A stretch of 61,965 nt of DNA, counting the filler, from Dugesia japonica (lineage: Eukaryota): NCBI GenBank assembly GCA_001938525.1. It is 6 parts of 6 records of this genome, joined end to end, with 100 filler letters (N's around TTAATTAATTAA, not from the genome) between each part and the next. Parts side by side here need not be neighbours in the genome. Positions count along the whole stretch, not along the records: positions 1 to 8,399 come from MQRL01458595.1; positions 8,500 to 25,770 come from MQRL01583722.1; 4 more parts are not named here. One strand, 5' to 3'. The position numbers and the translations under genes were made by a program. Positions 1,827-25,606 of the stretch are shown one piece after another (positions within the stretch are counted from its first letter, which is position 1; every line of letters starts with the position of its first letter). The notes below the pieces were generated by a model. It worked only from the letters and a program-made list of their open reading frames with translations. It was not told the DNA's origin and did not search any database.

Positions 1827-1947
1827 AAAGAAAATTTTGATTTAATTTAATAAAATTGTTTTGTATTTACAATAGAAATTACGCGTTGACTTCTGTTTTT
1901 CATTTATTATTTTATCTAGAGTAACCAATCGATTAAACTATCAAAAA

Positions 1948-3184: not shown

Positions 3185-3366
3185 TGTTGGGGTTCCACCT
3201 GAGTAGAACCAAAAATGTGGCTGGGGAAAAAACAGTCCTCAGGGGACCCTTTCAAGAATTTAACCTAATGCCCCTAGGCTAGGTATTCAGCTTATGGTGG
3301 GTGACCTCTCGCTTAATGGGAGGTGCGCGCCCATAGGCCTTTGTATTTGGGTTCACTATTTTCCCT
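3185..3366 (-). ncRNA. Novel structured RNA motif, copy 1
   Basis: Conserved in 4 copies with frame-breaking indels and compensatory stem changes (see findings). Confidence 0.7.
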
Positions 3367-3430
3367 ATTACTACGAATTTATTAAAGGTGAGAAAAAGTT
3401 AAACTAGACACACTTTATTTTATATAATAA

Positions 3431-3813
3431 TTACATCAGATCCAATGCCCCCGGATCTAACCACTGGACCGGATTGGTTGTTAAGAAATTGAATAACGCT
3501 GAATCGTCGTTGTCATCCCATTGGACCCATGTAGGATTTCCTAGTTGACGGGAGAGATCTCCAATGTATTGTTTCAAAAAATCGATTTTGCGCTGCAATA
3601 GTAAATGAGTTTCGTGTGCAAGGGCCTTAGTTTGCTCGGCCAAACTGCTCTGTCGTTTGACTATTAAGTCCAGTCTTTTTATCAATCAATCTCTCTTATT
3701 AAGATGTTTCAGAAGTGCTCGGTCGGTTTTTCGCTTAAGCTGTCGTTCGACCAGGCGTCGTCGCATAATTCGGTGACATCTTCTTAAGCTATTTGGGAAC
3801 GTGATTCGCGGCA
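3431..3813 (-). pseudogene. Cassette ORF B, copy 1 (in-frame TGA near 3686)
   Basis: tttag|TG CCG CGA ATC; PRITFPNSLRRCHRIMRR...QWLDPGALDLM; homologous to 13877-14259 and 24722-25104. Confidence 0.8.
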
Positions 3814-3931
3814 CTAAACAAGATATAACATTATTTTATTCGTTCGGTGACAAAGGCCAATTAACTAAAAAAAAGTAATAGAATTAAAATAAATTTGAAT
3901 ATCAAAACATTTATTTATGCAATGGCAGATA

Positions 3932-4269
3932 TTAAGCTCTCGGAGCCTGTGTACCCTTGTCGACCATCAATGGTTCGAGGGGCATTGCAGTTTTCAATTT
4001 GTGAATATCCTGGACCAGTTTATTCTCTCCGTCTTGGTAGGACCGGATAACCTCCGTGAAAGATTCCAGTTGAGCCTTCCAGACTCTTTCCTGTTTGTGT
4101 GAAGCTTCCGCTTCTGCCTTAAAGGCTAGACATTTTCTTTTATACCGGCTCACCTTACTTTTGGTGGTGGCTATCTCGGACTCCCAGCGTCGCTTTGCCA
4201 GGCGATAGAAATCACTGGCGTCTCTCATCTTTTTAGCGGGAGCTGAAGAACGGTTCAGAGAGGAATGCA
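3932..4269 (-). CDS. Cassette ORF A, copy 1 (coiled-coil orphan)
   Basis: ttgcag|TG CAT TCC; HSSLNR...YRLAKRRWE...FTEVIRSY...LEPLMVDKG; AATAAA just after the stop. Confidence 0.75.
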
Positions 4270-4465
4270 CTGCAAAATAGAACTTATTTACTAAAGGTTT
4301 CATCATTGAAATTACTGAAGTACTCGAAACCCTTAAAAAAAATTTTAATAACCTTACAAGAAATTTTCCTTTATTAAAATAATGACAAGAGCGAAGCCGA
4401 TTATTACTAACTAGAGACACGTATTTATTTATTAAATTAAACATCAAATAATATAAACACTATTA

Positions 4466-4809
4466 TTTAGTGGATAAGTCAGACACAGGAGCCGTGTTTT
4501 CAAAGTCTTCAACCCAGGTTTGGTTCCCGAACACCTCAGAGTAAATTTATGATAAAGGCTTGCACGACTGGGGGTGGGGCCGGAGGTTGGTAATTAAAAG
4601 GCGTGGCGTGAGTACGCACTGGCCCATTCCACTGTTGATAGTTAAGCCGTTCGCCGAAGTCACGTATGGGAGAGACGCTGGCTTACACGGGTGGTAAATT
4701 CAATTGATCCACCAAGATGCCCGCATCACGATTATGAGGGTTATGGTGGCGCCTAAAAATTATACGGCGGGTTCTTCGATCAATTATCCGTTCCCATATG
4801 GACTTTATT
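4466..4809 (-). pseudogene. Cassette ORF C, copy 1 (start decayed to ATA, internal stop)
   Basis: atgcag|A ATA AAG TCC ATA TGG gives IKSIWERIIDRRTRRIIFRRHHNPHNRDAGILVDQLNLP*, aligning to MEHKWEILLDRTSGGTLFKRYKNPYDRDASILVDRANLP. 3' limit approximate. Confidence 0.7.
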
Positions 4810-4859
4810 CTGCATTAGAAATTTGACTTAAATCCACATAATATAATCATTTATAAAAT

Positions 4860-5582
4860 TTTAAAATTTTGAAGTTTGGATTTTTGCTAGATGAAAAACT
4901 TTATTTAATAATGAAGATGAAGATAATAATTCACTAAGAAAACAATGTAGAGATCTTGGAAATTTCTATGATACTGATATCCATGGGGACGAACTTTGCA
5001 CTAAAATTTGTGGCTGCCAAATGTTACTTCTGGTAAGATATTATACTTTACCAGCAACTCCATTGGATCTTTTGTCTTTCATCATTTATTATGGTGAGAA
5101 CGTTTTTCTAATCCTGCAAATTGCCCTGCAAAGCCTTCTAACAATTTCATTATCAATCGCTAGCTGTGAGCGTTCTTTCAGCCAACTGAAGTTAATTTTG
5201 TCATATTTGCGTGCATCGATGAGACAATATCACCTTAGTGACCTTGCACTTCTCAGTATTAAACGAAACGAAATGAAAAAGTGTGATTTTGATGAAGTTA
5301 TTGATAAATTTGCCACAGTTAAATCCAGAAAAATCAACCTGATATGAACATTCTACATGTACNNGCACAATGTATGTATAAAGTTATTGGTAAAAATTAA
5401 ATAAAATATAGTATTTCGTTTGTATTACTTCTTGACTAATCACATGTTTCGTCTGCATCAGTTTCTTCATTAGTATTTATTTTAGTAGCTATTACATTGG
5501 ATGACTTTTAATTTTTTAGTGGGGGGGGGCGCAAAATATGGATCTTGTCCCCGGGTTGCCAAACACACTAGCTACGCCTCTG
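4860..5582 (+). mobile_element. hAT (ZMYM1-like) transposase 3' fragment with right terminus
   Basis: Dimerisation motif SIASCERSFSQLKLILSYLRASM...LALLSI; ends CTAGCTACGCCTCTG, a hAT-type TIR. Confidence 0.85.
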
Positions 5583-6173
5583 AATAGAACACATTCAAAA
5601 TTTATTGTTTTTAACAGTGCTTCAAAATAATTGATGAAATAGAACACTTAAGGGAAAGACTTTAGTATACCAATTTCTAAAAAGGTGAATTTGATCAACC
5701 ATACAAGGATATTCGCGACCACGACCGTCTCGACGCCAAAATGATATATAATATTTTATAATTGTTTCTCACAGTCAATATTTTATTTTTTCATTATTAG
5801 TGTCGGCTTTTATTTTTAAATTTAATTCCTTTTTCTAATATTTCTACAATTTCCATTTACTGATTTCCGCTTTATTATCAACTCTTCTGCTTAAAACTAC
5901 AATTTTCGGACATTCTTTTAATTAACCGGTAATTCCAGCCCAACAATTTTATCAAAATAAAGCTCACTACAATAAATAACTTATATGATGTGAAGATAAA
6001 TGATATGCAGGCCTGAAAAAGTGACGGAGATCATCATGTGTGTATGAAACAATAAGTTTTCAAATAAATATAGAATCGTAAAAAATCCATTAATAAATAA
6101 TCCAAATGTTTATTTTTTGACAGATAAATACAGCATTTAATTTAATAAACTTGTTTTCTTTTTACAATAAAAG

Positions 6174-6460
6174 CTAAAAGTTGAATTCTGCTTTTTTCCA
6201 GTAACCCGACATGTCAGAAATTACAATTTTGTTGTCGGTGATCTCTAGAATTCCATATGGTTGTTCTTTTTCTGCTGCTTCAATTATACCGGGTAATGTT
6301 ACATGGATAAATTTATCCGTTATTATAACCGATGCGTCATGAACATGTCCACAAATATATGCTTTAACACACGAAAACTTTTCAATTATTTGAAGCAGTT
6401 GGTCATCGTTCCATATCATCCATCGTGGGTTATGTGATTTACTTAATAATGGAGTGTGAC
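6174..6460 (-). CDS. ADPRM: Terminal exon of a Mn-dependent ADP-ribose/CDP-alcohol diphosphatase-like metallophosphoesterase
   Basis: Acceptor ttgcatttag|GT CAC; HTPL...WN...CVKAYICGHVHD...HVTLPGIIE...YGILEI matches the ADPRM C-terminus (GHxH motif). Upstream exons not recognised. Confidence 0.75.
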
Positions 6461-7909
6461 CTAAATGCAATTTATATGAATAGCTAATTACGTGAGATTT
6501 ATAATTTGAATTAAAATATTTTACTAAATATCATTCATGGTTTTGACAAGAACAGAAAGTCTGTAGTAAATGTATAGAACCATTACCATTTAGTAGGGTT
6601 CTAAATTCAAAAAAAGGTCCACGTTGAGTAGTTCAACAGGCTGTACAAGGATTCATGAGAATAAAAGCAATGCGTTGTAACCAATTTTATATCCAAATAA
6701 ATTACAACGCAACAGATTCACACGCGAATAAGCAACGCCAAATAATAAGCAAAAAAGACCACAGATTTACTGATTTTTATGCATGAATATAAAATGTTTT
6801 AAATATAATCACCGTTAAATTGTAATTCAAGTTACACGGACAAACTCATTGTTTTGCGCTCTTGACTTCGTTCCTCATTTTAAAAATTAATATTTGAATT
6901 TCTATATCGTAGTCATGGCAACGTAACGAAAATTTGACCCGAAAACATTGACATTTCTTAAAGTTTCAATAATAACATAATGTGGAACTCTTTTGTTTAA
7001 CACTAAATTTTTGGAATGATTCAATTTTCTATGTAAATATATAGCAAATTGAGTCAAATTAACTCGGTCCGTAAATCTAGTGTTACAAATTACATAAAAA
7101 TTTAATGTTTTTTAGATTCATGACATTTCAACCATAACTCAACTGAGTTGATAATAACATTTAATAAGTAAATAGTTGGTGTCAAAGACAAGGCAAACTT
7201 TTCATTCTACGTATTTAAGTTATTTGATTTTACAAATAAGTTTCGGCGGACAGCGGATGCCCGGTCGGCCCCCTTAAACCGACATTGAATGTAATTTAAA
7301 TGAATGTAAAGTTTCTATATATTATTGTAAATTATTTTATTGTATATTATTGTAAAATTATCCCAATTTATTTTCTGTGTCAGCTAAAATCAGTCAGATT
7401 TGATCCATTGATGGATTAACTTTTAAGACCTCTGAGGTGGAATATCAGAACTTAAATTCATACAACGCTAATCGTGTGAAATTTTTCGATTATATTTTAT
7501 AAATTAAAATAAAAATATAATAATTACAAGAGCATTATTTGTAGCAATATTTGGATAAAAGTAGATGGATACTTGCGCATCGGACAGCCACCCCGTTGAC
7601 GCAATAATATAGTGACCTATAAATTAGGAGGTCAGTGAAGATGATTTAAATTACAAACAGAAGTAATAAAATTATTGATAAATAAAATATTTAATAATAC
7701 CAAAAAATTCCTATTTTATAGTATTTTAAATTGTTTATTTAAATCATTGACATTTGATATTTTCATATTAAATTTACTTTGAATATTCGGAATTATAAAT
7801 AAAAAACAGAATTAATAAAATTAGATTAATCAAATATTTAATACTGCCAAGAAAAATGATATTTTCATATCAAAATGTAATTTTTTATATTATTATTAGT
7901 AAGATATTT

Positions 7910-8337
7910 TGAATTTCGTCTTGTGATGGGACCCTAAAAACGAAATTCAAAATAACATCATTAATAGACTTTTGTATTCATGCTATGAATGAATATGAAC
8001 TTGCAAACAAAGCAGTTCATATACTGATTCCATTTGCAACCACATACCTATGTGAAACTGGCTTTTCTACATTAACTGATATCAAATCAAAATATAGAAA
8101 TAAGTTGAATGTGGAGAATGACATAAGAATGAAATTAAGAAGTACATTCCTGGTTTGTGCGCCAAAAATTTGCCGCAAGGCTCACATTGATGGATTTATT
8201 TTTATATTATTACTTACAGTCATATACTCTATTTAAATAAAATCTGTAATCTTTGATTTTCATGATTACTTTTCATAAGGTGGTCCGTATAAAGCTTAAA
8301 AAGAAAAAGTGGTCAACAATGAGGTTAAGAACCGCTG
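7910..8337 (+). mobile_element. hAT (Buster/Charlie-like) 3' fragment with right TIR
   Basis: LIPFATTYLCETGFSTLTDIKSKYRNKLNVENDIR; ends AGGTTAAGAACCGCTG. Confidence 0.85.
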
Positions 8338-8399
8338 ATCTATTACATAATCACATTTAAAACATATTGGTACGCGTAAAAGTTAGCAAAAAATACATT

Positions 8400-8499
8400 N
8401 NNNNNNNNNNNNNNNNNNNNNNNNNNNNNNNNNNNNNNNNNNNTTAATTAATTAANNNNNNNNNNNNNNNNNNNNNNNNNNNNNNNNNNNNNNNNNNNN
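8400..8499. other. Artificial scaffold linker N44-TTAATTAATTAA-N44 (also at ~25771, 34875, 44835, 53261)
   Basis: Identical six-frame-stop 12-mer centred in 100-bp gaps. Confidence 0.95.
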
Positions 8500-9312
8500 A
8501 AATACTCTCAAATGGTTCATTAGCCTTTAATTTTATAATTTCCTCCTTTGTTCTAATTGTTGTTACTTTGTTCGTTTGGCACGCTGTACATTCTTTAATT
8601 ACTTTTGACACAGTTTCACTTAACTCTTCAATATCATATTCATTTTTCAAATAATTTATGACTTTTTCCATACCGGCGTGCACCAATAATTTATGGATTT
8701 CTTTTACCATTTGAATTTTCTTTTCTGATGGGATCCATATTTTGTCGTATTTTGTTTTTATTATATCTTCTATTAATCGAAACTTTTTACATGTTCCATT
8801 TTTTATATCATTCTTTATCTGTTCAATTTCTTGTACGTTACTTTGCCATTTATATGTATCTGAACTTGATATACCATTAATTGTTCTTGTCTTTATTTTC
8901 CTTCCTTTGGATTTTCATGATCTGTTAGGCATTGTACACACGTACCACAATTCATTCTTGACAGCATATCTGCATTCGTGTGTTTCGAACCTTGTGATCT
9001 GTTCTCACCAAAAATCTTTTTCCATACAAATAATGTTTAAAATGGTTACAAAAATAGTAAATGNNNNNNNNNNNNNNNNNNNNNNNNNNNNNNNNNNNNN
9101 NNNNNNNNNNNNNAAAATCTTTTTCCATACAAATAATGTTTAAAATGGTTACAAAAATAGTAAATGGCCAATAATTCTTTTCTTGTTGTACAATATCCCT
9201 TTTTATGAGCTGACATTGCATGTGACCCATATGCAATGATTTGTTCTACACCTCTTCCATCTATTTGCGATAAAACTGCTCCAATGGCATCAAAGCTCGC
9301 ATCAAAACGCAT
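8500..9312 (-). mobile_element. Gypsy pol fragment (RNase H and integrase H2C2 finger)
   Basis: DASFDAIGAVLSQ...YCTTRKELLAIY...HYLYGKRFLVRTDH; EIHKLLVHAGMEK...CTACQ. Confidence 0.9.
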
Positions 9313-9561
9313 CCCAACGTTGCGTTCCAGCTTTTCATCCCAACGTTGCGTTCCAGCGTTTCATCCCAACGTTGCGTTCCAGCGTTTCATCCCAACGTTG
9401 CGTTCCAGCTTTTCATCCCAACGTTGCGTTCCAGCTTTTCATCCCAACGTTGCGTTCCAGCGTTTTATCCCAACGTTGCGTTCCAGCGTTTCATCCCAAT
9501 GTTGCGTTCCAGCTTTTCATCCCAACGTTGCGTTCCGGCTTTTCATCCCAACGTTGCGTTC
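9310..9561. repeat. 26-bp minisatellite CATCCCAACGTTGCGTTCCAGC(G/T)TTT, ~9.5 copies
   Basis: Seen directly; accounts for the spurious FIPTLRSS/SSQRCVPAFHPNVAF ORFs. Confidence 0.95.
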
Positions 9562-11731
9562 TAGCATTTGTGTGTAATCGTTAGAGAGATAAAAAAAAAT
9601 TTTCCAAAAACAAAAGTTTATTAAAATTATCAAAATAATTAAAAATTTATTTTCCCAGCAGAATCTGAACAAAAAATTATTGATTTAATTTTATACTAGG
9701 ATATCGATTTTTCCGTTGACCGACAGCAGTAGTAGCAGAAATAGTAACACACGAATACAATTGCCGAAATGATCATAGCAATAATTAATAAATTTATTAT
9801 CAATATTAAATAATCTTCTGAATCAAATTAAATATTAATTATTGATTACTTTTTACTTACTTAAAATTATCCAATTTATCAAAATTTCTTTGCAATCTCC
9901 TATCAAATCAAATCAAATCAAAATAATTAATAAAATCACAATATTTATCACCATCAATCACCAAACTCAAATCAACCTTCGAATCTTGATCATCGAGACC
10001 TTTCGTGTCTAATTTGATAACAAGTGATGAAAAATTAGAAAATATTTTCTCTAATTTATCTATTTCTCCTCCACAAGTGCTGGATAACTTGATAATAATT
10101 AATAAATCGATAATCTAGTTACACTTCAGCAGCAAATTAAAATTTATTAAAATTATTTCTAATTATAATTTAATCAATTATCAAAGTTTAACGAGTATTT
10201 CTATTATTCTATTCACAACTAAATAATTACTTTATTATCTTTTGTTATCCCATTTACAACAGTAATTATATTCAAATCAAAAATTTCACATTTATTATAC
10301 TCTTGAGCTTTTAACTTTATCAAATTATTATTAAATTTTACAGTTGGATTTGATAAAGTAAAGTTTAATATGCAATACAAACTTTTGTTTCCAATATTGT
10401 TAAAATTTATTTTATATCCGCATTCAGTGGTGAAATTTGTTCCATTAATACAATTATTTTTATTAATCTCTACAAGTAATTCTATAAATATTTACACAGA
10501 ACAGAAATACCTTCAAATAAATAAACCTGAATACAAGTAGAAAATATTATTAATAATTTTAACATTATAAATTAATAGAAATATTTAAAATATATCAAAA
10601 ATATTCAATATTTTAATAATTACAAATTCAACTTATAAAATATCACTTTATTCCGAAAATTTATTCATTAATTTAGTCTAACAATTACTTCATTCAATTC
10701 TTAATTTGTAGTTTTAAATTATAATTTCATTAGTTATTTTATCATTAATTAAAAACAATTCAAAATATTTCATAAAGAAATTTAATAAAAACATTTCATT
10801 TATTCTTTAATAATATAATTATTTGTTAACCTTATTTTAATCCAAATTACAATAAATAATTCAAATTTATTTGAAAAATATTTTAAGTTCTATTTTCCTA
10901 TTTTATTATAATTATTTTTTAATTAATAATTAGAATTTACTTTTTAAAAGTTATTATTTAAGAAATGGAAAATGTTAATAAATCGAATAAAGGGTTAAGT
11001 GACCATTCATTCGGATTTCGTACAACTATTTTCCTCAAACTGATATTGCAAATATCGTGATTTTCCAACTTACTATAGAATTTTTTTTATAGATAATTTA
11101 AAATCCGCTATTAAATTTAAAGATTTTATGTCCTTTTACAGTGACAAGCCAATTAAACCGGTAGATTTCTGTATAAATTGCAGGCAGCAAATAGTACTAT
11201 GATGATCGGTAACATCACTTTCCTTTAATAATAATTAAACTGCAGTTAAATTAAGGATAATTGAATTTAATTTTATCTTGTATCTTAAAGGATGATAAAA
11301 ATAAAGTTTTTAATAGCTATATTGGAACAGAACCCGGCCATGTTTATCCACTTTAGTCTTTAACAATTGAAGAGGAAAAACTATTAATAAATAAATATTA
11401 GCGGGAAAATAAATTATTATTTAATAAATCGAACTATTATTAATGTTGGGCTCCGAGGTTTTGATGTTTTATATCTTCTCTTGTAACTCTTGGTACTTCT
11501 TTCTTGACATTCCTTTTATCTCATTATCTTGTAGAGGCAGATACCCCGGAGCCGGCAGAAATTTGGCAACACTCATTGTTTTGCTCCATCCACCCCGAGT
11601 CCATGCGGGACTATGCGGTATTCCGTCTTTTAGAAAGTCTTAGTTGTTATGGTTCATATTAAGTTGAATCAATTTAATCTTTAAACAATGAAGAGACTTC
11701 GATAATAATTACGCATTTATTTTGATATAAT

Positions 11732-12056
11732 TTATGGCGACTCGAAGACTGTTTCCTCGGTAATCACACATTCATCGTAACTTTTGTTCTTCACCTCATA
11801 TTCCTTCCACAATGTCTTTACGTTGGCATAGGATTTGATTATCTCGACAAACATTCGGTTGTTCGCAATGAGTGTGAGTTCTCTCCGGTGACTCACACTC
11901 AATCGTTCTCGCAAGTTAGATATCCTTCGCTTGGTGAGGCTGGCCGTTTCTTGTAGTTTTTTGTTTTCTTTACGTAGCCTTTTTAGTTCAAAATCTGGCC
12001 ACGCGCTGATCGATCAACAACTCTTTTTGAGTGGGTTTGATGATTCTCATTGACAT
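11732..12056 (-). pseudogene. Distant paralog of cassette ORF A (one frameshift)
   Basis: ttatag|A ATG TCA ATG AGA ATC ATC AAA CCC ACT CAA AAA; KPTQK and MFVEIIKSY compare with APTKK and SFTEIIRSY of ORF A; AATAAA after the stop. Confidence 0.5.
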
Positions 12057-12155
12057 TCTATAATTTAAATAGACTAATCATTCATCATAAAATAGTTCGA
12101 TTTTATCGGTATAACAATTTTATCACATAAATTCGTAATAACTAATTAATTTTTA

Positions 12156-12503
12156 TTATAATGATAGAGTTAAATTATTGTAGATTTTATCTCTTTTTCT
12201 CTTTTCTCCTGATTCATGATTGGTTAATTGATGCTCATACTGTTGCTCTTGTTCCCTGATTTTCCCCTTTAATCGCTTTAATTTCTCGAAATGTTGACTA
12301 GTTATTTCCACCTCCAGCCTTTTGATGCGATCCTCCTTCTGATTCATTTGATCTTGTATCATCCACCAGGGCTTGGTATCGGTACCTTCTCTCCCTATGG
12401 AATCCAAAACGTCAGACATGCTGCTGTTTGAACCGATGTTGAAACTGAGTCCTGCTTCACTTAAATTGGCGATGGCTTCTGCTCTCACGAATTGATGGGT
12501 CAT
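12156..12503 (-). CDS. Orphan 115-aa coiled-coil ORF in a second acceptor-ORF array
   Basis: aacatag|ATG ACC; open frame in a GC-richer island. Confidence 0.5.
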   Translation of the reverse strand: MTHQFVRAEAIANLSEAGLSFNIGSNSSMSDVLDSIGREGTDTKPWWMIQDQMNQKEDRIKRLEVEITSQHFEKLKRLKGKIREQEQQYEHQLTNHESGEKRKRDKIYNNLTLSL

Positions 12504-13622
12504 CTATGTTCTAAGTAATAATATTATTAAGTTATTAATATGTGGCTACTGAAAAATTGTAAATCAACTCAAAGAACAGTATATATTATTAATTAAAGGA
12601 ATGTTAACCGATAAATTTTGTTTCGTTTATCCATACTACTCTTGATTAGTAGATCATCGACCACTCATCATCTTGGATGGAGATGGAAGACCTTTATGAA
12701 ATTCATTAAATACTCCTTTTCTATTTCAGACATGATTTTCCACATCACTGTACATAATATTTCATGGTGACCCTATTGTAATCAATCAAGAATTATCAGG
12801 AATCCAGCTCCCTCTGGATGATGAATGGTCCTTCTATCTCTTAGAGCATCATTATGGTAATATCACAAGGTGTATTTTCGTATCTAAACCAACAAAACCT
12901 TTATGTTTAAATACTGAAATTATAGCTAAGAAATTAATATTAATCAATTAACAGCAATCCAAATAAATGTTTATTATAAGATATGAAATTAATGAATAAT
13001 AAACACATAGTTGAAAGTTTGATATTTTTACATACACTGAACAATCGTTTATTTCAGTCTAATGGCCATATAATAAGGAGAAAGATCCAACCACCCAAAT
13101 CCAACATCAGGTTAATCACGTTTAATAGAAAAACAAGTTTTGAACGACGAGTGTCTCATTCTATCACTACAATCANNNNNNNNNNNNNNNNNNNNNNNNN
13201 NNNNNNNNNNNNNNNNNNNNNNNNNTGAACGACGAGTGTCTCATTCTATCACTACAATCAATTCGCCGTTTATTATCTAGTAATAATTGTTCGTTCTAAT
13301 CATCATAGTNNNNNNNCTCAGCTCTTTTATTGATCAAGGCAGGAAATTGTCATTTCTTCCGTGTTACTCTACGTTAATATTTATCATTTCGCGACACGTT
13401 TCTTTCTTTCTACACATTGTCAATTCGCTATAGTTCATCATTTTATCATCGTTATTTATGAGTGGAAGATCTCGCGAGGAAGGAGCTGATAAGATGGACC
13501 GCCGGAGATAGCAGAACTACCCTCAGATGATCCCTCTTCAGTGTCTTCCAAAAAATAAAAAACAATTTAAAATATGATAACATAAAAATAGAAGGAATCC
13601 TTACTTCTTTTCCCGATAGATG

Positions 13623-13811
13623 TGTTGGGGTCCCCCCTGAGTTGAGTGACAAGAAAAGGTGGCTGGGGAAAAAACAGCCCTCAGGGGAACCCTTCCAAGA
13701 ATTTACCCTACCGTCCTTGTGGTAGGTTTTCAGTTTATGTTGGTTGACCTTACTCTTAATGGAAGGTACACGCCGATAAACCTTTATATTCGGGTTCAAT
13801 AATTTTTCCCT
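13623..13811 (-). ncRNA. Novel structured RNA motif, copy 2
   Basis: Same stems with compensatory substitutions, including 13-bp GGGUUCCCCUGAG/CUCAGGGGGACCC. Confidence 0.7.
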
Positions 13812-13876
13812 TCTTGTTATCGTTAAAATACAGAAATCACACTTTTGAATACAGACATTTTATTTTATGGAAATAT

Positions 13877-14259
13877 TTAGAGCAAATCCAGCGCCCCTGG
13901 ATCTAACCACTGGTTTGGTTTTGTTACCATGAAATTGAAAGCTACGATGTCGTCATCGTCATCCCATTGTGTTACCGATGGGTTGCTTATTCGACGGGAC
14001 AGGTCAGCAATATATTGCTTTAAGAACTCGATTTTCCGCATCAACAGCTGTTTGGTTTCGGTTTCCAAAGCTTTGGTTTGAACCGCCAGATCATTTTGCT
14101 TTTTTATAATTAAATCTAATTTTTTAATCAGTTGATCCCGTTGTTCTAAATGTTTCATAAGCGCCTTATCCGTCTTATGTTTTAGGTGACGTTCGACCAG
14201 TAAGCGGCGCATAATTCTATGGCACCTCCGGATACTATTGGGAAAGTTAATTCGTGGCA
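13877..14259 (-). CDS. Cassette ORF B, copy 2 (intact)
   Basis: cattcag|TG CCA CGA ATT; ends QWDDDDD...QWLDPGALDLL; AATAAA at ~13860. Confidence 0.8.
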
Positions 14260-14380
14260 CTGAATGAAAAACCATTAACAGAGAAATAATAACAGTTATT
14301 ATAATCAAGTTTATTATGTATTCAATGGTGTAAAAGAACTGAAGCTAAGATTAAGATATACAAAATTTTATTTTTTAAAG

Positions 14381-14748
14381 TTAAACATGGGGAGTGGATT
14401 TCGTCTTGGTGCCCTTATCAATCATCAAAGGCTCCAGATATGATTTAGTTTTGAGAAGTAGGATGTCTTTGACCAGTTTATTCTCACGGTCATGGCTGGA
14501 CCGGATAATTTCGGCGAACGACTCTACCTGGGACTTCCACACTCTCTCTTGGTCCTGCACCATTTTTATTTCTTCGCGGATATTCGTACATTTGGTTTTA
14601 TATCGCTTTACCTTAGAGTGGGCCGTAGCGATTTCTGCTTCCCATCGCCTCTTGGCTAGTTTGTATAGGTCCCAAGTAATCTCCTTATCTTCACTATCTT
14701 CGCGTAATTTTTTAGTCGGGGCCTGCGATCGATTCAAAGATGAGTGCA
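14381..14748 (-). CDS. Cassette ORF A, copy 2 (intact)
   Basis: atttcag|TG CAC TCA; synonymous changes relative to the other copies; AATAAA at ~14367. Confidence 0.8.
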
Positions 14749-14901
14749 CTGAAATATAAATGTAGTAAAATTTAAGAATTCTAATTAAAATGAGGTGTAA
14801 TTCGAAAACAAGACCAAACAGGGTGGATCAATAAATATTCTACACTAAGGAAACAGAGAAAAAACAAGTTTTTATTCAAATTTTATTAGACAGTAGTGAG
14901 T

Positions 14902-15330
14902 TTACACGAGCACATCAGTGTGATCTTCTGTTGCATTCTCGTTGTTATCGTTGATTAACGCGTTCCGCGCACTCCACAGATTATTTTGTATAAAAGAAGA
15001 CAGTTGTGCCGTAGGGGGTAAGAGGTTCGTGGTGGGTCCCACTAATGAAGAACCATCGTGCCATACACGTTCTATTTGCGGAGTTTCGGTGGACCGCTCA
15101 AAGGACAATGGTGCTGGTGGAAAGGTGACTCTATCTCTTCTCGGTCCACACCAACTATAATAGGCAGCCCGTTCGGTCGCGTCCCACTGTCTTTCCTCAG
15201 CGGCCTGCTCGGGTGACAAATTAGAGTGCTCCACCAGAACACCGGCATTCCTATTGTATGGATTCCGATATCTTTTAAAGGTCGTTCGGCCGGAATGGAC
15301 GTTTAGACACACTTCCCATTTGTATTCCAT
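14902..15330 (-). CDS. Cassette ORF C, copy 2 (intact, 142 aa)
   Basis: ttgtag|AGATTCAT ATG; homologs in copies 1 and 3; two AATAAA at ~14870-14887. Confidence 0.8.
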   Translation of the reverse strand: MEYKWEVCLNVHSGRTTFKRYRNPYNRNAGVLVEHSNLSPEQAAEERQWDATERAAYYSWCGPRRDRVTFPPAPLSFERSTETPQIERVWHDGSSLVGPTTNLLPPTAQLSSFIQNNLWSARNALINDNNENATEDHTDVLV

Positions 15331-15529
15331 ATGAATCTCTACAATTAATAGGGAGTAATGGTATAATTTGAAATAGTGAGAATGGGTTAGATAACTAGTT
15401 CATATTAGAGGAAATTAATTTATAATTACAATGAGACAAAAAGTTTATTTTACAGCAATTTTACACAAATGACACGACAGGAAAACAATCTTTTAAGTGG
15501 ATATCACCCGCACGAATTAGAACATCTGG

Positions 15530-15697
15530 TTATTCCTCGTCTATATCAACTCTGGTTGGAAAGGGGAACATCTCGACGAAACACTGGAGGTCTGTTTCGT
15601 CGGGGTGTTCCACCTCACCCCTCGTTAAATAGTGGGCAATGACAGATTCGTCGTTGGCAACACCACCTCGCGCAATTCTAATGTATGGTTTGATTTT
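15530..15697 (-). CDS. Cassette ORF D, copy 2 (55 codons, LxCxE-like acidic motif; not in the ORF track)
   Basis: tttgtag|AAA ATC...GEVEHPDETDLQCFVEMFPFPTRVDIDEE*; C-terminal half conserved in copy 3. Confidence 0.6.
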   Translation of the reverse strand, partial: KIKPYIRIARGGVANDESVIAHYLTRGEVEHPDETDLQCFVEMFPFPTRVDIDEE

Positions 15698-18600
15698 CTA
15701 CAAAAAAAAATTTNNNNNNNNNNNNNNNAAATTTATTTTATACTGTGTGGATTTTAACGAATTTGTCATTTAATTATCATATTTCGTGATCGTCTCCTTA
15801 CCGGCGTGACTAGAGTTGTTTAAAAGGTAAAGCAATCGAGATAGTTTAACAGTTATTTCGTTTGTGTATAATCTAGCTAGATAGATACAATTACGGCAAT
15901 GATTTTCTGCAGAATTAGTGGATTTATCGATTTCCTAACCAAGAGAAGAAACTGAGCTAATTGTTGCCTCAAGCACTGATGTCGATCATGGGTCTCGATC
16001 AAAATACAATCTATTAATCATGTTACTGAAGAGGAATTTTTTAATCAATAGTGTAAGTTTGCTAAGTAAACTACCTTGGTTCTCCGGTAAATAAAAAATA
16101 GAAGTAGAATTTCGTTAATTTATCACTTTCTATTAACAATTAAAAATGATGGATATTTATCAAATTAGTTTACCCTCGTAATTCTTGGTACAATAACTCG
16201 TAATGTTATATTTTGTTATATTATTTTTTTTTATTAACAATGAAAAGGATGGATATAAAATTTGTTTATCATAGAAATTCTTGGTAAATTCAATCATAAA
16301 GTTATATTCCGTTATTTTATCAATTACTTATCTAAACGATGAATATTTATAAAATAACAACTATAATGGTTCATCATAGAAAATTAAAATAAATCATAAA
16401 GTATTATTTTGTTATTTTAACGATTTTGAGTAATTAACAAATGAATATTTATAAAATAACAACTGCATTTAGCTTAACATAGAAATTTTATTAAAGTAAA
16501 TGTTATTTCACTTTTCACAACATGACTATTTAATATAATCAAGATAATATTTTTACTTTTTCTTTTGGCTTATAGGTTGTTTGCAACGGGCTTCTTTTCG
16601 AGAACAATCACTACTAATCTTGCAATTCCTTGGGTCGATTCTAAAGTCCGGAATTCTTTTACTTTCTTGTATTACGATTTTCTGTTATCGTACACTTCTG
16701 TTGCCGCACGATGACTTTTGACTGATTTGCACTTGTATGTTAAGCTTTTTTCGACTATCCGTTGTTTTACACAGTTCACTGTCAATTTATTACCGTAAAT
16801 TCCTTTTGAATAATTAAGTGTTTGAAAGCTAACGTTTGGTTTTTCCAAGAGAAAATAATGATAATTAGTTGTTTTTTTCAGCTAAAGTTAGGGATCCTTT
16901 TATAGGATTTGTCATACACCCCGACTTCTTCTTGATTTGCTGATTATTTTTGGATCAGCCTTTTCTTGATCTTACTGGTTACTGAACCAATTTTCCAAAA
17001 TTTTCTAAAAATTTTGGTGCTGCTATTGGCAGCTATTTTTATCANGACACATGACATTTGTGTCTTTGTTATATTTTTATTTTTAGGTCTTCTATTGGCT
17101 GGATCTTGGAAACCTTGCCGTACCCTTCTGGAAGGTGGTATGTTTTCCTTCTTCAGAATTTTAATTGCACATGGATGTTTTCTCTTCATTTTTTCTTGTC
17201 CGGGTTTTTTCCGACTTCCGGATAAAACAGATTTTTTCACTAATTTCGCTTCTTTTTATTTTAAAATTAATTAATTTTCTTTTGCTAATTAATTATTTAC
17301 AATACTGCTTTTCTTTGTTGTTTATTATTAATTAATTAATTTTTCTTAATTTCCAAATGTAAATTGCTTCTATGTTAACCTGTTCTTCAGCTTCGTCTAA
17401 GCCTTTCGTTCGTTCTCTGCTAAGGATGATTACATGTTTTATATTTCATTATTGATAATTACAGCGGTTCTGCTATTCTTTGCCGTCGATTTGACTTTTG
17501 GCCTTATTCTCGTTTAGCGAGTGTTTTACCCCAACAGATGTTCTGATTTAATTAAACAGTTAATGGTGTTTAATGGAAATTTTTAAGAGTGTTTTTCTAA
17601 TAATTTTGATTTCCTTTTATACCTCACTGTATCGTCAAATTTTAACAGATACAGTTGGCGTCCACTTCAGATTTCTGTTAATGCAAGAAATCGTACTCTG
17701 TTTACCCGTAGCTTCTACAGAGATGTCCAAATATGGGCGTGATTATTTTTATGTTTTTGTTAATTCTGTAGCGGATTATGTGCTCACAGAAGTTCTATAT
17801 TTTTTTCCTCAATTGGAGAAGCTTAAAAAAATAATATTTTTCTTAAAAAATAATAATTTTCTTAAAAAATAATAATTTTCTAAAACTTGTATGAGTTTTA
17901 GAAATAAAAATAACTACACAATCACATGCAGATATAAACATATCAACCCTGAATTCTAACATAAAATCATCAGAGGTTCTTCTGCATATAACTTTTCTTT
18001 TATAATTCCTTCTTATTCATTATAAATAATAATATTTATTGAATAATAATAATTTTAATTATATTTATCGATAATAATAATAATTTCCCATTTTTATATT
18101 TTTTTAAAAATTTATAATAAAAATACAGTTCTTGTACTTAAACCTGACTAATAATCTATTATTTTTTTATTTAAAATGATTATGATGATTTATTCTGCTT
18201 TTCTTTTCCTATAATTACTCTTTAAAATATCTAAATATTTTAATATAGTTATTTGTTTTAATTTCTCCTTTTTTCTAATCATTATAACTTTATTTTTAAT
18301 ACATGAATTCTTTCAGCACATTTATATAAATTATAAATAATATTATTTTCTTGGTTTTATTTTACATTCTCCTTTTTGATTATTTAAATACTTTCTGAGC
18401 ATATTTTACCTTAGCCATCTAATTTTTGATTATCTTCAATTATTATGTTTTAATATTTAATCAATTCTTCGTTTTCTCTACAACATATTACTTATTTATT
18501 ATTACCCTTTAATTTATTTCCTTCTCTGCTTTTCATATTTTACGAAAGGCTGTTTCAGCCCAACATTAATATAATAGATAAAATTATCAAAAAAGGTTCA

Positions 18601-20456
18601 TTAATTATTCTGTGTAAAGAAAAAATTTTATATTATCAATTCGTATTCGTAAAATAATAAAAGATGTTAATCAGAAGAAGAAATAATTTCACTGAAAAGT
18701 TAAACAAAATATGATAAAATAAATCGATTATCCCACCAAAATCCACCAACCATTGATTGATTAATACCAAAAAAGGGTATAAACGGAACTGCGACTTTGT
18801 GCAATACTACCCGTAAAAGAAAAATTAAGATACAAGTAAGAAATTTCAATGTTTCTCTATAGAAAACTCGGCTTGAATATTTACATTAATATTACATTAT
18901 TTTTTATAGTCTTATTACATTAAACGTCTTCTTAGCAAATCAGTTGCAGATGCTATTAAATTTTACCCAGTTGTTAATAAATCTATTTAATGGGGATATA
19001 TAAGGACTTTAACTTGAAATTTTATTCATAGAGCTAGAACTAATACACTTCCTAATAACTTTTATGATTTAAAAAATATCATATTTTATGATTATTTTAT
19101 GATTTTAAAAATATACAGACTACCTTCTTTGGTTATTTTATAATAAAAATATACAAAGATTCCCTTCTTCGGTTATTTTTATAAGTATTTAATAAGTATA
19201 ATTACAATATGGTTGCAACATAGTTGCAACAATCTACTCAAACCACTCAAATATAACAATAATCTAAAAATAATCCCTGCCACATAGAGTAAATAATCAA
19301 ACAATGCACCATAACTATGCAAATATTACACTGTTACCATGTAATAAATGAATTTTTTAAGTTTATATCACTTTTATATTAATTTCATATTACCATAATT
19401 ATCATAATTACAATTATGATAATATGAAATTAAACAATCAATAAATATTGGTTAATTATAATTGATTAATTTCATATTACCTTAATTTTAATTGTATTAA
19501 TATGAAATGAAAATTTTAATTTCAAATAAATTTATGGTAATGAAATTAAGCAATCAATAAATATTTAGATTTTTTAATTTATAAAACTATAATTATATTT
19601 GAAATTAAAAATGGTGATTTTATTTGTTTGATTTTTTTAAGTTAAATTTTAATGAAACTTTTTAATTAGATTTTAATGAAACTTTTTTANTTAGATTTTT
19701 TTATAAGAGAATTTAATTAACTATTAATTGAAATTTAGGTAAATCTATTTAAAGGTATCATTATTATATGGTCTATGATGATGAAGGGTTCCATAATAAT
19801 ATGGTCTACGAGGATTAAAGGTTCTTTTAATATGGTAAAAAATGTGACAAAGATATATAATATGTGCTAAATAATATAAATATATCATGTTTTGAATAAG
19901 TAACAGTTGCGAGGGAATTCCTGATAATTTTTCGGATCTGGAAGCACTGATACCAGAGATGCACATACCTTAATCGAGCTTAGCCTAGTTAAAACTACAC
20001 AAGCTGATCGATAAGTTCAATTATGAACAGACTCGAATTGGATACAATCAGACTTTGATGGATTCGCTCCGTTAGACTGTACATGTCGGATGAGGTAATG
20101 GTATGGAATGAAAACAAGACTGTTAGAGAAACAATACATGAAAATAATTATTAATGATTTATTTATTTAAATTAATTAACTTATATAAGAAAAAGAACAA
20201 GAAAAATTCTTTTAAATTTCTCGCCAAAAAAACATAAAAGACAGAGGAAAGAAAAAAAATTTTTCTCCAAAAAAATTTTTAAAAAATAAAGAAAATAAAA
20301 TTTTTTTTTAAATTTCCCACCAAAAATTTGTACGATAACTAGTAACTCAGATGAATACTAGTAACTCACACGATAATAAGCAGCTTGCAACAAATTTAGG
20401 AATTTACACGGTTGGTGTGAGCACACTGAACCATTATGATGTATCGATAACCCTAT

Positions 20457-20608
20457 CCCCTCTTGCGATAATACCAAAGTGAGTTACTATTTTAGATCAA
20501 TAAATTTGCAATAATCAGTAACATATATTAACCTATTTTCTATTTCCGCGCGATAACCAGTAAATGACTTCAAAATAGTAACTCATTTTGGTATTATCGA
20601 GAAAGGGG
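20457..20608. mobile_element. MITE-like element with ~37-bp TIRs
   Basis: CCCCTCTTGCGATAATACCAAAGTGAGTTACTATTTT ... AAAATAGTAACTCATTTTGGTATTATCGAGAAAGGGG. Confidence 0.75.
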
Positions 20609-21070
20609 CTCAATAACTCATAGTGAGCCAGTGCGCTTACATCTACCTACTAAAATATTAACCCAACATATAAAAGTTACATAAATCACACGAAAATTAT
20701 AATCTAACGTATAAAAAATCGAAACCAACTTATTAAAATTATAATTACAATTATTGCGAGAATAATTGTTGGACTTAACCATTGATTGCATTTGAGATTT
20801 TAGTAAAATAAAGAAAAAGGTTTGATAAAAATAAAATGTATTTGTAACGAAATTCAAATTTTCGACACTTGCCTTCTTCAGGAATGATGACTTTTTGCTA
20901 GATTCAAAACGATAATAGATCTTTGTTACAAAATTCTTTATATTTTATCTAAATTTTTTTTTAAAATTAAATCTCAAAAAATCTTTTTTAAATTAAATTG
21001 AATAGAAAATCGTTCAATAATCGCGAATAGACGTATTTTCTTGTCTGCAATTAAGTACATTAATTATAAT

Positions 21071-21260
21071 TGTTGGGGTTCCACCTGAGTCGAGGTTGAC
21101 AGAAAACACTGACCTGGGAAAAACGGCCCTCAGGGGATCCTCTTCAAGAATTTGAATCTAATGTCCCTAAATTAGATATTCAGTGCAGAGCGGTTGACCT
21201 TCAACTTCATGCGAGGTTCACACTCCTACACCTTTGGTTTGGGTCCATATTCATTTCCCT
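21071..21260 (-). ncRNA. Novel structured RNA motif, copy 3 (most diverged)
   Basis: Stem sequences rewritten but still pairing (GGUGUAG/CUGCACU; AUCUAAU/AUUAGAU). Confidence 0.7.
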
Positions 21261-21319
21261 ATTATTTTAATCATTATATAAAAAACAAAATTCTAATAAT
21301 AATATGTATTATTTTCAAA

Positions 21320-21678
21320 TCACATTTCATCCAGAGTACCCGGGTCTAACCACTGGGTAGGCTCTTCTGGTAAAAAATTAAACACAGCTGTGTCGTCGTT
21401 ATCGTCCCATTGTAAACATCACACGTTACCTAATTAACGAGGCAGGTCGGAGATATAATGCTTTAAAAAATCTATTTTATTTTGCAGGAGTTGTTTGGTT
21501 TGCATTGCCAGGTCATTCTGCTTTTTCACAATAACATCCATCTTTTTGATCAACTTATTGCGCTGGGATAAATGTTTTAGTAGGGCCCTCTCACTGTCTT
21601 TTGACATGTTTTTCTACCAGCATGTTTGTATCAGATGGTGACATCGCTTAAGACTTGTAGGGAGTCGGATCCTATGCA
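21320..21678 (-). pseudogene. Cassette ORF B, copy 3 (disrupted)
   Basis: tgtttag|TG CAT AGG ATC; ends QWLDPGTLDEM*; internal frameshifts and stops. Confidence 0.75.
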
Positions 21679-21825
21679 CTAAACAAATAAGAAATAAGAA
21701 TAGAATTTAATTTTTAAAAACAAATTTAATTAAGAGGGGACTCTATCAACATCACCAGTATGAACGTAAACGAATTATTTAGACAGCCACATTTATTTAA
21801 AAACTAAACACAACATTACAAAGGG

Positions 21826-22184
21826 TTAAGTCCGCGATGTCTGAATGCCCTTGTCCATCATAAGGGGTTCAAGCGGCATCGCTGTTTTTAACTTTAAAAT
21901 ATCGATGATCAGTTTATTCTCTCGGTCTTTGTAGGACCGGATGATTTCGGTGAAAGATTTTATCTGGGCCTTCCATACTCTTTCCTGGGTATGGGAGGCT
22001 TCGGCCTCTTTCTTAAATTCTACGCATTTTTTCTTATACCGACTTACTTTACTATTGGCATTTGCCGTGTCGGCCTCCCATCTGCGTTTGGCTAGCCGAT
22101 AGAGGTCCCAGGTCATTTCCTGGTCCTCGCTGGTCTCCCTTACCTTTTTGGTCGGAGCTGGAAGTCTATTTAGCGATGAATGCA
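21826..22184 (-). CDS. Cassette ORF A, copy 3 (intact)
   Basis: tctatag|TG CAT TCA; ~119 aa homolog. Confidence 0.8.
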
Positions 22185-22352
22185 CTATAGAATGAGTAAA
22201 TAAATTAGACTAGCTACATATTTAATGTAATAGATTTAAATCAGAATTCAAATTGTGAAAAATCATCAATGGACAAGCAACATGACAAGTCATCCTAGGC
22301 TTAAAGTAATAAAGACATTTATTAAAAAATATTTAACAAATAACAAAGGGCG

Positions 22353-22772
22353 CTAGTCGCTCGGAGTGGTGTTTGTGTTTTCATCATTATCGTTCTCGGC
22401 CGAATTCCTTATAGTCCATAAATTGTTATGGACAAAGGCAGTTAAATTGTGTAATGGGCGTAGATGGTTAGTAGTGACACCTACAACCGAAGACCATTCG
22501 TGCCATTTTCGAATAATTTAGGGCACGCCATCTCAATTTATGGTTACAACTGGAACCGCATGATAAACGGCCCTTGTATGATCAGGACCGTTCCGCGTGA
22601 AATATGAGTGGCGCTCATTTGCGTCCCACTTGCGTTCGTCGTTTGCGTCTTCAATGGGTAAATTGGCTCTGTCGACAAGAATACTGGCATCTCTATCGTA
22701 GGGATTTTTATACCGTTTGAACAAGGTTCCACCCGAGGTGCGGTCTAACAAAATCTCCCATTTGTGCTCCAT
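22353..22772 (-). pseudogene. Cassette ORF C, copy 3 (disrupted near 22530)
   Basis: attag|G ATG GAG CAC; downstream WHEWSSVVGVTTNHL...FVHNNLWTIRN matches WHDGSSLVGPTTNLL...FIQNNLWSARN of copy 2. Confidence 0.75.
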
Positions 22773-22929
22773 CCTAATATTATTTTTTCGACATTTATTA
22801 AAACCATTTAAATATATTAAAATATGATGGAAAAAAATGATAATAAAGTGATTTCAGAAAGAGGATTAAAATGTTTCTCAATTTTATTTAAACCAGGCCA
22901 TAACAGTTGTCAGTATTATGTTTGCCGTG

Positions 22930-23118
22930 CTACCATTCTTCGTCAAGGTCCACATGGAATTGCTGTGAGAACATTTCGACGAAACACTAGAGATCAGTCT
23001 CATCGGGATGTTCGATCTTACCATGGGACAATATGTAAGCTAAAAATTGCCTCAACCGAGAGGTCTTATGTCGTTTTCAAATTAAGCGTAACGCATTTCT
23101 TAGTTCCGTGGACATAAC
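22930..23118 (-). pseudogene. Cassette ORF D, copy 3 (two in-frame stops)
   Basis: atttcag|GTT ATG TCC...GKIEHPDETDL*CFVEMFSQQFHVDLDEEW*. Confidence 0.65.
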
Positions 23119-24473
23119 CTGAAATTAATATGTACATTAGATCATCACACCACTGCCACCCCTAAGTGCAATATCAGCCAAAAAGAGGCCCAGATTTATG
23201 ATGTCTGGTTCTGGCATCAATAATAAAATTTTAGAGGTCGTCACCCATGATTACTAACCTGCTGATGGAAATAATAATCACTTATTCTGGACTAGTCGTG
23301 ACTTTACGAAAGACGCTTCACAATTCTAATACTCCAATTAAAGGTTCTAACCGAAGGGCATTTTTAGCCTTAACTCTGTCATTGGTGCAGTTCATATCCA
23401 TAACTGGATGGATCATAATAAAAAGAGAAAGCCAACAAATCATGGTGAAAGTGATAATAATATAATAACAGTAAGGCCATCCACTAGTTTAATATTTAAA
23501 TAATAACGTTAATGATGCTAACGGACGACCTCTAAACCATCTAGTTGCTGAAGGTGGTCACGACTATAACAATTGTATATGGATAAGCCTGGTAATAGTG
23601 TTGTTAGTAATAACAACAACCCTTTTAATATACACCATAGTTGTAATGATATTCCGAACGATATTGATGATAATAATTATTATGTCAATACGAAAATTAC
23701 TAACGGTCACAATGCTGACAAAAATTACCATTTTAATAATGAGAACAAGAATTTTAATAATGATAAAAATCATGAAAATAATAATACTAAAGGTGAGAAT
23801 TATGAATCCATTTAACACATGCAAATAAATCATTTTATCATGGTACATACGACAGCAAAATTACTAACGATGGCCAATTTCCTACAAATTATATAAGTCA
23901 CTTCTGAATTATCATAAATGAGCAAAATTACTAATTATTAATAAATGACGGAGATAGAATATGTTAGTTCTAGTGATGTGCTAACTTTAGCCGTGGTGTA
24001 TACGAGACACACACATTCGTAGTCAATATTAGTAATTATGATAGAGAGCTTACATACCATAATTGGATCACTATATATTAGGTAGAACAAGAAATGACAA
24101 AGTTAGTGTGCATTCCGCTATCAACCAGATTCAACGTTAGCATAATTGAAAAAGTGAAAACTGCTTATGAAAGAACTACTGAAAAGTTGCACGGCGAAGC
24201 CAATTCTCGAATCTAAACCAATACGATTTTGGAATTAGTAAATATGGAAATCACAATTATTCATCAGGTGGAATGTTCGAATGGCTCGCTGGATAAGTGA
24301 CATTACACTGCTACATTCAAGAAATAAAAGATAACAGATCTCACACTGGAATTATCGCGAGGACAATCCTGCCAGCGGCTTAATTTGTTAGTTACGAGTT
24401 TAATAAAATTTTCCATCGCTGTTTATGTCCTACCAATTTCTATTAAAATAGCAAATAAAGTAACTCATAGTAT

Positions 24474-24657
24474 TGTTGGGGTTCCACCTGAGTAGGAGGA
24501 AGAAGAATGTGGCTGGGGAAAAACAGCCCTCAGGGGAACCTTTCAAGAATTTAACCTAACGTCCCTAGGTTAGATATTCAGCTTATGGTGGTTGACCTCT
24601 CGCTTAATGAGAGGTGCGCACCCATAGGCCTTTTGATTTGGGTTCACTATTTTCCCT
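24474..24657 (-). ncRNA. Novel structured RNA motif, copy 4
   Basis: Closest to copy 1; ACCUCUC/GAGAGGU, AUCUAAC/GUUAGGU, GGCUG/CAGCC. Confidence 0.7.
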
Positions 24658-24721
24658 ATTATCACGAATTTATTAAAGGTGAAAAGGAGTTGAACAAGAA
24701 AAACTTTATTTCATAAGAAAA

Positions 24722-25104
24722 CTAGAGGAGATCTAATGCCCCAGGGTCTAGCCACTGGCTTGGATCCGTCGTTGAAAAGTTAAAGGCGGCTATATCATCA
24801 TCATCGTTCCACTGTAACCAAGAGAGATTACCAATCTGGCGAGAAAGATCTTCGATATACTGTTTCAGGAAGTCGATTTTCCCTTGCAATAACAGTTGGG
24901 CTTGATTCTCTAAAGCCTTAGTTCGAGTGGCTAAATCGTTTTGCTTTTTTACTATCAAATCTAGTTTTTTTATCATTTGGTCCCTTTGCGCCAGGTGTTT
25001 TAATAACGCTCGGTCGGTTTTACGTTTTAACTGTCTTTCGATGAGTAGGCGACGCATTATCCGGTGACACCATCGTAAGCTGTTCGGAAATGTGATCCGT
25101 GGCA
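24722..25104 (-). CDS. Cassette ORF B, copy 4 (intact)
   Basis: catctag|TG CCA CGG ATC; 127 aa; AATAAA at ~24705. Confidence 0.8.
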
Positions 25105-25235
25105 CTAGATGAAGAAGTATTAATGAAAAGAAATTATTAATTTATTTTATATAGAACGAAACTCCCCTAATCAAATCAAAATAAGACACACAAAGGTAAG
25201 GATTTACGAACTAATCATTTATTTGCAAATATAGT

Positions 25236-25606
25236 CTAGTCATTTGATATAGNNNNNNNNNNNNNNNNNNNNNNNNNNNNNNNNNNNNNNNNNNNNNNNN
25301 NNNNNNNNNNNNNNNNNNNNNNNNNNNNNNNNNNNNNNNNNNNNNNNNNNNNNNNNTGGCTGGACCGGATGATCTCGGCAAAAGATTCAACTTGTTTCTT
25401 CCACACCCGTTCTTGCATGTGGGAGGCTTCGGCTTCTTTTCTAAACACGATACATTTTTTTTTGTATCGGAGTATTTTTGCGGTGGCCACCTCCGCCTCC
25501 CAACGACGCTTCGCGAGGCGGTATAGGTCCCAAGTCATCTCTTGGTCCTCGCTGGTGCTTCTCATCTTTTTAGTGGGAGCCGATGGACGGTTCAGGGAGG
25601 AATGCA
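25236..25606 (-). CDS. Cassette ORF A, copy 4 (3' part in gap)
   Basis: tttatag|TG CAT TCC; HSSLNRPSAPTKKMR...WDLYRLAKRRWE. Confidence 0.7.

Follow-up and report, generated by a model that had tools for sequence, protein, structure and literature searches.

Acceptor-like sites in the place of start codons in two conserved reading frames of a probable gypsy-type long terminal repeat from the planarian Dugesia japonica

Organization of the element

The subject of this study is a family of mobile elements in the planarian Dugesia japonica (assembly GCA_001938525.1), four copies of which, numbered 1 to 4, lie on the minus strand of a stretch of 61,965 nucleotides (nt) that was joined from six genomic records and is called the window in the following. 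In DNA of 28% GC, copy 2, the only whole one, is made up in 5' to 3' order of an A-rich block of 630 nt, the word TATAAAAGG at position 16904, a nearly private stretch of about 1.2 kb, four small open reading frames (ORFs) termed D, C, A and B, an AATAAA and a 200-nt end, and each of the four ORFs is preceded by an acceptor-like site. ORFs A and B, on which this report centres, begin with TG immediately behind such a site. The features of the family are:

13623..17536, minus strand: copy 2, whole element, probable solo long terminal repeat (LTR) with 9-bp inverted ends and GATG duplication
11444..18565, minus strand: outer element that hosts copy 2, ends TGTTGGGCT, own small ORFs, TTAA duplication
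15530..15697, minus strand: ORF D of copy 2, acceptor-like site adjoining an N gap, no visible ATG, phase 0
14902..15338, minus strand: ORF C of copy 2, acceptor, own ATG at 15330, 142 codons
14381..14748, minus strand: ORF A of copy 2, acceptor TTTCAG then TG, 121 codons, predicted single long helix
13877..14259, minus strand: ORF B of copy 2, acceptor ATTCAG then TG, 126 codons
13859..13864, minus strand: AATAAA 3' of ORF B in copy 2, also present in copies 1 and 4, AATAAT in copy 3
13623..13815, minus strand: conserved 3' end, predicted to be structured, U5-like
3185..4860, minus strand: copy 1, without the 5' part, comprising a decayed C, A (from 4269), B (from 3813, one internal stop) and the 3' end
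21071..23118, minus strand: copy 3, comprising D (ATG at +3), C (ATG at +1), A (from 22184), B (from 21678, broken) and the 3' end
24474..25766, minus strand: copy 4, comprising A (from 25606, N gap), B (from 25104, intact) and the 3' end
40930..40990, minus strand: further 5' terminus of the family, flank AGAC (the 3' flank of copy 4 is ATAC)

The same terminal base, that of CCCCAACA, closes the 3' end of all four copies, and a matching 5' terminus, TGTTGGGG, is found in copy 2 at 17536. The common stop and the matching start therefore define copy 2 as one complete element of 3,914 bp (termini TGTTGGGG...CCCCAACA), which is flanked by the 4-bp target duplication GATG at 13619-13622 and 17537-17540. 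It is nested within a related element of 7,122 bp flanked by TTAA, such that 4-bp target duplications accompany both whole elements; copies 1, 3 and 4 are devoid of an assignable 5' end. The inverted terminal match amounts to 9 bp in both whole elements. Upon inspection, the termini TG...CA agree with the TGTNR pattern described for the ends of gypsy LTRs (PMC2836005; this and the other papers are cited for the parts of their text that were available). We accordingly take the 3,914-bp unit to be, most probably, a solo LTR derived from a large retrotransposon of the gypsy type. Flanks resembling a primer-binding site or a polypurine tract (PPT) do not occur next to the copies in the window, and a gypsy-like integrase ORF is absent from 13623-17536, which a non-autonomous copy could well lack. 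A 5'-truncated Penelope or Helitron relic and a PPT followed by a short LTR of 190 bp at the 3' end had both been considered and were dropped once the ends and the target duplications were found. With regard to Penelope, no hammerhead and no ribozyme family was detected in 3000-26500 at E values up to 5 (minimal forms can escape such a search), and the Rfam scan of this interval returned two weak chance matches only.

The family is clearly large and present in high copy number. In sequencing run X5 the summed contig depth, which is not equal to copy number, reached about 116,000 at the element's 3' end, 16,000-22,000 in the 5' block, 900-6,400 in most ORF bins and 61,661 in one ORF bin, while a 1,362-bp contig matching copy 2 with 2 differences had a depth of about 10. 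Contig depth over the 3' half of ORF A (14315-14567) is about tenfold that of the adjoining stretches, as if this part were shared with a more abundant family.

In the predicted fold of the 200-nt 3' end, both partners are exchanged in 7 of 40 pairs among the four copies. The fold (13623-13815 and its counterparts in the three other copies) includes a hairpin with an AGGGAC-type loop and has no match in Rfam; it could act as a packaging or priming signal. A search with the 3'-end pattern yielded 0 loci in metagenomes and 1 in viral contigs (L001), which is likely due to chance. Copy 1 is cut off by a hAT fragment at 4895-5580 on the plus strand, and the private part of copy 2 contains four decayed tandem copies of about 100 nt each at 16088-16500.

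ORFs A and B begin at acceptor-like sites

In a previous inspection of the same DNA, referred to here as the sequence-only reading, A and B had been reported to begin with YAG|TG in 8 of 8 cases. The count is correct: on the minus strand, which had been left unstated, every one of the eight sites displays a T-rich tract, YAG and TGC, with the ORF in frame after TG. Independence cannot be claimed for all of them, as the eight sites represent two independent events, each seen in four copies. Pyrimidines make up 0.56-0.81 of the 16 nt preceding the acceptor, and AG next occurs 13-79 nt further upstream. Across the window, TG follows 46 of 801 acceptor-like YAG sites (5.7%), and the chance of two ORFs sharing TG after YAG is about 0.003. 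A and B are indeed unrelated, their alignment being no better than that of shuffled sequences (133, 275 and 500 of 500 as high).

An upstream ATG common to the copies does not exist, in agreement with the sequence-only reading; at 2 of the 8 sites, however, private in-frame ATGs occur (A of copy 1 at -11, -12 and -58 codons; B of copy 2 at -5). The first downstream in-frame ATG is situated at codon 14-62, past the conserved start. Own ATGs follow the acceptor by 1 nt in C of copy 3, by 3 nt in D of copy 3 and by 8 nt in C of copy 2, that is in three different phases, as had been noted before. B of copies 1 and 3 carries stops or a frameshift, and A of copy 4 enters an N gap.

Coding constraint and properties of the proteins

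The claim that constraint sets in immediately behind the acceptor was borne out by comparison of the copies in pairs, six for A and three for B, the frameshifted B of copy 3 being omitted. In the first 13 codons the proportion of nonsynonymous differences (pN) was 0.03-0.18 and that of synonymous differences (pS) 0.28-1.27, with pN low against pS in 9 of 9 pairs; overall values for A and B were 0.14-0.26 for pN and 0.63-1.02 for pS. The first 13 codons are hence constrained as strongly as the rest of the ORFs. The four copies are old lineages in which synonymous positions are saturated, and four-fold third positions are otherwise invariant at just 2 of 12 in A (four copies) and 1 of 19 in B (three copies). 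For the G of an internal valine codon to be fixed at both sites, the product of these fractions gives a chance of about 0.01. The invariance stressed in the sequence-only reading thus holds, and it supports the notion that the N-TG codon is under constraint.

The ORF A protein comprises 121 amino acids, and a structure model predicts one helix from residue 14 to 102. No Pfam family scored above the cut-off for any cassette ORF, matches in Pfam and PHROGs being weak and below it, and searches for relatives of A, B or C outside the window yielded none (best atlas score for C, 0.77). ORF D of copy 2 aligns with D of copy 3 at a score that none of 500 shuffles attained.

Promoter, donor-like sites and the outer element

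The following signals lie in copy 2 and in its host element:

16896..16904, minus strand: TATAAAAGG, predicted promoter (TATA box) of copy 2
16970..16979, minus strand: donor-like CCA then GTAAGA, exon end A at 16976, upstream of the TATA box
15796..15804, minus strand: donor-like CCG then GTAAGG, exon end G at 15802, in the stretch nearly private to copy 2
13599..13607, minus strand: donor-like GAA then GTAAGG of the outer element, exon end A at 13605

TATAAAAGG occurs twice on the minus strand compared with about one occurrence expected in the window, so that only its placement is informative. The second occurrence, at 17621, belongs to the outer element, and the best local alignment between the promoter regions of copy 2 and the outer element begins on this word; overall, the 5' blocks of copy 2, the outer element and the 40990 end align no better than shuffles (13/200 and 44/200). 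Copy 2 is inserted about 80 nt behind the outer TATA box. The best outer donor behind this box, GAA then GTAAGG (13605), follows about 99 nt of the outer element's own sequence without ATG. Donors were ranked with a generic frequency table and not with planarian data; the candidates of copy 2 behind the TATA box end in G.

An ORF of the outer element (12013-11735) aligns with ORF A at a score reached by 2 of 500 shuffles, and the ATG of the A-like ORF stands one base past the acceptor. Both acceptor-led ORFs recorded in the outer element, 12503-12156 and the frameshifted A-like 12056-11732, retain ATGs. We would guess that loss of two bases in an A-like start of the outer type converts AG|AATG to AG|TG.

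RNA reads and contigs

Read mapping covered positions 11300-17300 (copy 2). Three raw RNA runs, sampled at 6-25%, contributed 22, 131 and 32 reads to this interval, mostly less than 90% alike. The check for RNA reads joined at the acceptors of A and B, as proposed along with the sequence-only reading, gave no spanning read in the runs examined. None of the runs listed as containing the element is recorded as RNA, and four contig runs that had been guessed to be RNA follow X5 in their depth profile and resemble DNA.

Other features of the window

A Polinton-like gene run occupies 27077-34440 on the minus strand and encompasses a protein-primed DNA polymerase B of 1,251 codons with two N-terminal zinc fingers, three ORFs of no assigned family, what by eye is likely a protease, and a fragment of an integrase; an exact inverted copy of 65 nt from a Polinton-like ORF is also present (26434-26498 and 31278-31342). 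Furthermore, the window contains a host gene similar to EMC3/TMCO1 with short introns (745-1826, plus strand), a tandem array with a 26-nt unit (9240-9580), a decayed piece of an ordinary gypsy element that retains integrase and PPT (54554-55601, minus strand) and a fragment of a mariner-type transposase (58582-59121, minus strand).

Discussion

On balance we lean towards the view that the start codon of A and B is an AUG completed by cis-splicing: a non-coding leader common to both would contribute A, its terminal base, to the TG behind the acceptor. Each of D, C, A and B would possess its own acceptor, all transcripts would end at the single AATAAA past B, and the choice of acceptor would select the protein made. 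Since the ATGs of C and D in copy 3 and of C in copy 2 lie in different phases, the leader, if shared, should be non-coding, and the start of A and B then has to arise at the junction. C and D, equipped with their own ATG, would be indifferent to the phase of the leader, and A and B would be made from spliced RNA only. The leader donor may be sought either behind the TATA box in the 5' part of the element, for which the outer element with its A-ending donor could serve as a model, or in the internal 5' region of a full-length element. In the latter case, which would correspond to the situation in Drosophila gypsy env, it is expected to be absent from solo copies and from the window. The sequence-only reading had left open whether the leader is provided in cis or in trans; as the cassette is a mobile element with TG...CA ends and a 4-bp duplication, cis-splicing within a retroelement is much the likelier route. 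The leader's terminal A, which had also been proposed, fared less well than the acceptors and the constraint: neither a junction read nor a conserved A-ending donor ties it to them.

Several observations weigh against the preferred reading. The three RNA runs showed no joints and no depth over the bin of the A acceptor, a result that bears neither for nor against splicing as such, and no read or contig links a GT donor to either acceptor among the 15 of 31 and 15 of 25 joints listed. The top-ranked donor of copy 2 (15802) ends in G, as does a weak donor at 16794, which matches the position of the outer donor and ranks below the nine best. A good A-ending donor (16976), which would place the start in a strong context, is located 72 nt upstream of the TATA box and corresponds to phase 1 of an open frame that has its own ATG at 17189. 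In one run, X3, a contig breaks exactly at 14748, the acceptor of A, and continues from 15135, where codon 66 of ORF C begins. Finally, neither paired LTRs nor gag-pol stand beside any copy in the window, which is why the LTR identity, likely as it is, has to be inferred.

Some of these points would be accounted for if A and B were second exons behind a coding exon ending in phase 1, be it the A-rich frame 17189-16976, with methionine at the junction, or the first 65 codons of C, with valine. The frame around the former (17255-16944) stays open for 103 codons, a length that 16 of 1000 shuffles attain (three blocks were tested, this being one), and the A-rich 5' block is high-copy. Because donor 16976 lies in phase 1 of this ATG-bearing frame it could end a coding exon, which would then terminate in A. 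C of copy 2 is in phase 1 from its acceptor, and the X3 joint, if contiguous, fuses C to A in frame through G|TG. However, a single contig from one of four runs supplies this joint, copy 2 reads AT instead of GT at the position, and the run resembles DNA; the contig may stem from a copy that was spliced and then inserted again. A long frame is missing from the 5' blocks of both the outer element and the 40990 end (141 and 458 of 1000 shuffles as long), C and D of copy 3 stand in other phases and would fall out of frame, a junction methionine in two unrelated proteins is a coincidence of 0.003, and a valine codon ought to drift. We therefore regard an upstream coding exon as unlikely. If the leader ended in G, as most splice donors do, translation of A and B would begin at GUG, whose weakness as a start could keep the proteins scarce. 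The top donor of copy 2, CCG|GTAAGG, would give G|TG with a purine at -3, and a GUG start would likewise keep the TG invariant. On the other hand, a C directly after the codon is a weak context for a non-AUG start and is present in 8 of 8 cases, an ATG in some frame within 32-104 nt would catch scanning ribosomes at all eight sites, yet the first 13 codons are strongly constrained, and there is almost no family depth around 15802 (0-1.3 in the bin in 4 of 4 runs). GUG initiation is thus distinctly improbable.

Flatworms also add spliced leaders in trans (PMC3510090), and a row of acceptor-led ORFs has an operon-like appearance. Flatworm leaders end in AUG (PMC3510090), which, as pointed out in the sequence-only reading, puts A and B out of frame: the frame thus opened stops after 4 further codons in all four A copies and after 9-25 in all four B copies. 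Trans-splicing would require an undescribed leader ending in A and deserves very little credence. Equally slight is the probability that no splicing occurs at all, the AG then forming part of a GTG, start or other codon, in unspliced RNA, and the T-rich tracts representing ordinary AT-rich spacer. It would fit the in-frame codon GTG at 8 of 8 sites and the lack of any splice in reads or contigs; a pyrimidine nevertheless precedes AG in 8 of 8 cases, the AG-free zones extend over 13-79 nt, the base at -3 would be a pyrimidine in 5 of 8, and scanning would not reach internal ORFs that lack promoters of their own.

If the start of A and B is indeed created by splicing in cis, the LTR of a retrotransposon holds a set of spliced accessory genes that is under strong selection and belongs to no known protein family. 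A and B would be invisible to ordinary gene prediction because the DNA lacks the start codon. A splice-dependent start would stop the genomic RNA from making the A and B proteins, and it would provide the host with a control point, since PIWI-interacting RNA (piRNA) pathways can act on splicing. A still wider generalization, which we put forward as a doubtful possibility, is that the LTRs of a planarian giant retrotransposon are mobile multi-gene units with one promoter and leader, at least four acceptors and two splice-made AUGs, that splice choice gates the output of the two unrelated proteins, which thousands of solo LTRs possibly still express, and that the arrangement, similar to that of complex retroviruses, arose independently in an invertebrate element.

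Comparison with known systems

A splice-made start codon has a precedent, which the sequence-only reading had missed and which limits the surprise: in Drosophila melanogaster gypsy, an AT in the gag region is connected by splicing with the G of env (PMC2585583), and the env of errantiviruses of the springer subclade is spliced to an AU dinucleotide (bioRxiv 10.1101/2023.08.03.551782). As in these cases, the start codon of an ORF in an LTR retroelement would here come about through the splice that connects a non-coding 5' segment with an acceptor far away. Gypsy env, a single gene between pol and the 3' LTR, has the codon split as AT|G, as mapped by experiment (PMC2585583); the element described here would have A|TG, two alternative acceptors and helical proteins of about 120 amino acids inside a probable LTR. 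In contrast to errantivirus env, its exons begin with TG, and A, with 121 amino acids and one predicted helix, does not correspond to an envelope glycoprotein and has no Pfam family above the cut-off.

Among planarian elements, the giant gypsy-like Burro/GYPSM1 elements, with thousands of copies, implied multi-kb LTRs and accessory ORFs (PMC6431247), are a candidate parent, the likeness being one of description. Their extra domains are, in the text available, part of an internal polyprotein and not a spliced gene row in the LTR (PMC6431247). Gypsy-type elements with small accessory ORFs kept by purifying selection are also known from the MDG1 group with its sORF1 and sORF2 (PMC11952523), where two ORFs upstream of gag are read from unspliced RNA and the proteins have been detected, whereas the four acceptor-led ORFs of the present element are known from DNA. 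Ginger DNA transposons share the TGTNR ends and the 4-bp target duplication; they differ in having inverted repeats of 40-270 bp and a transposase (PMC2836005), compared with 9 bp and no transposase here. The 9-bp inverted ends of both whole elements, along with the missing integrase ORF, speak against a Ginger identity. A description of the element was not found in the open-access literature, and in the available main text of a paper on env-carrying elements that covers flatworms neither 'splic' nor 'accessory' occurs (PMC13524379).

What is new in comparison with gypsy env is accordingly the A|TG phase, the two alternative ORFs and the gene row in a probable LTR. Complex retroviruses produce several messages from one leader, several acceptors and a common 3' end, with ORFs reaching into the LTR, as is the case for sag of mouse mammary tumour virus (MMTV) and for nef of human immunodeficiency virus (HIV), which extends into U3; MMTV sag and HIV nef carry a whole AUG. 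In its arrangement, the gene row proposed here resembles the accessory region of these viruses.

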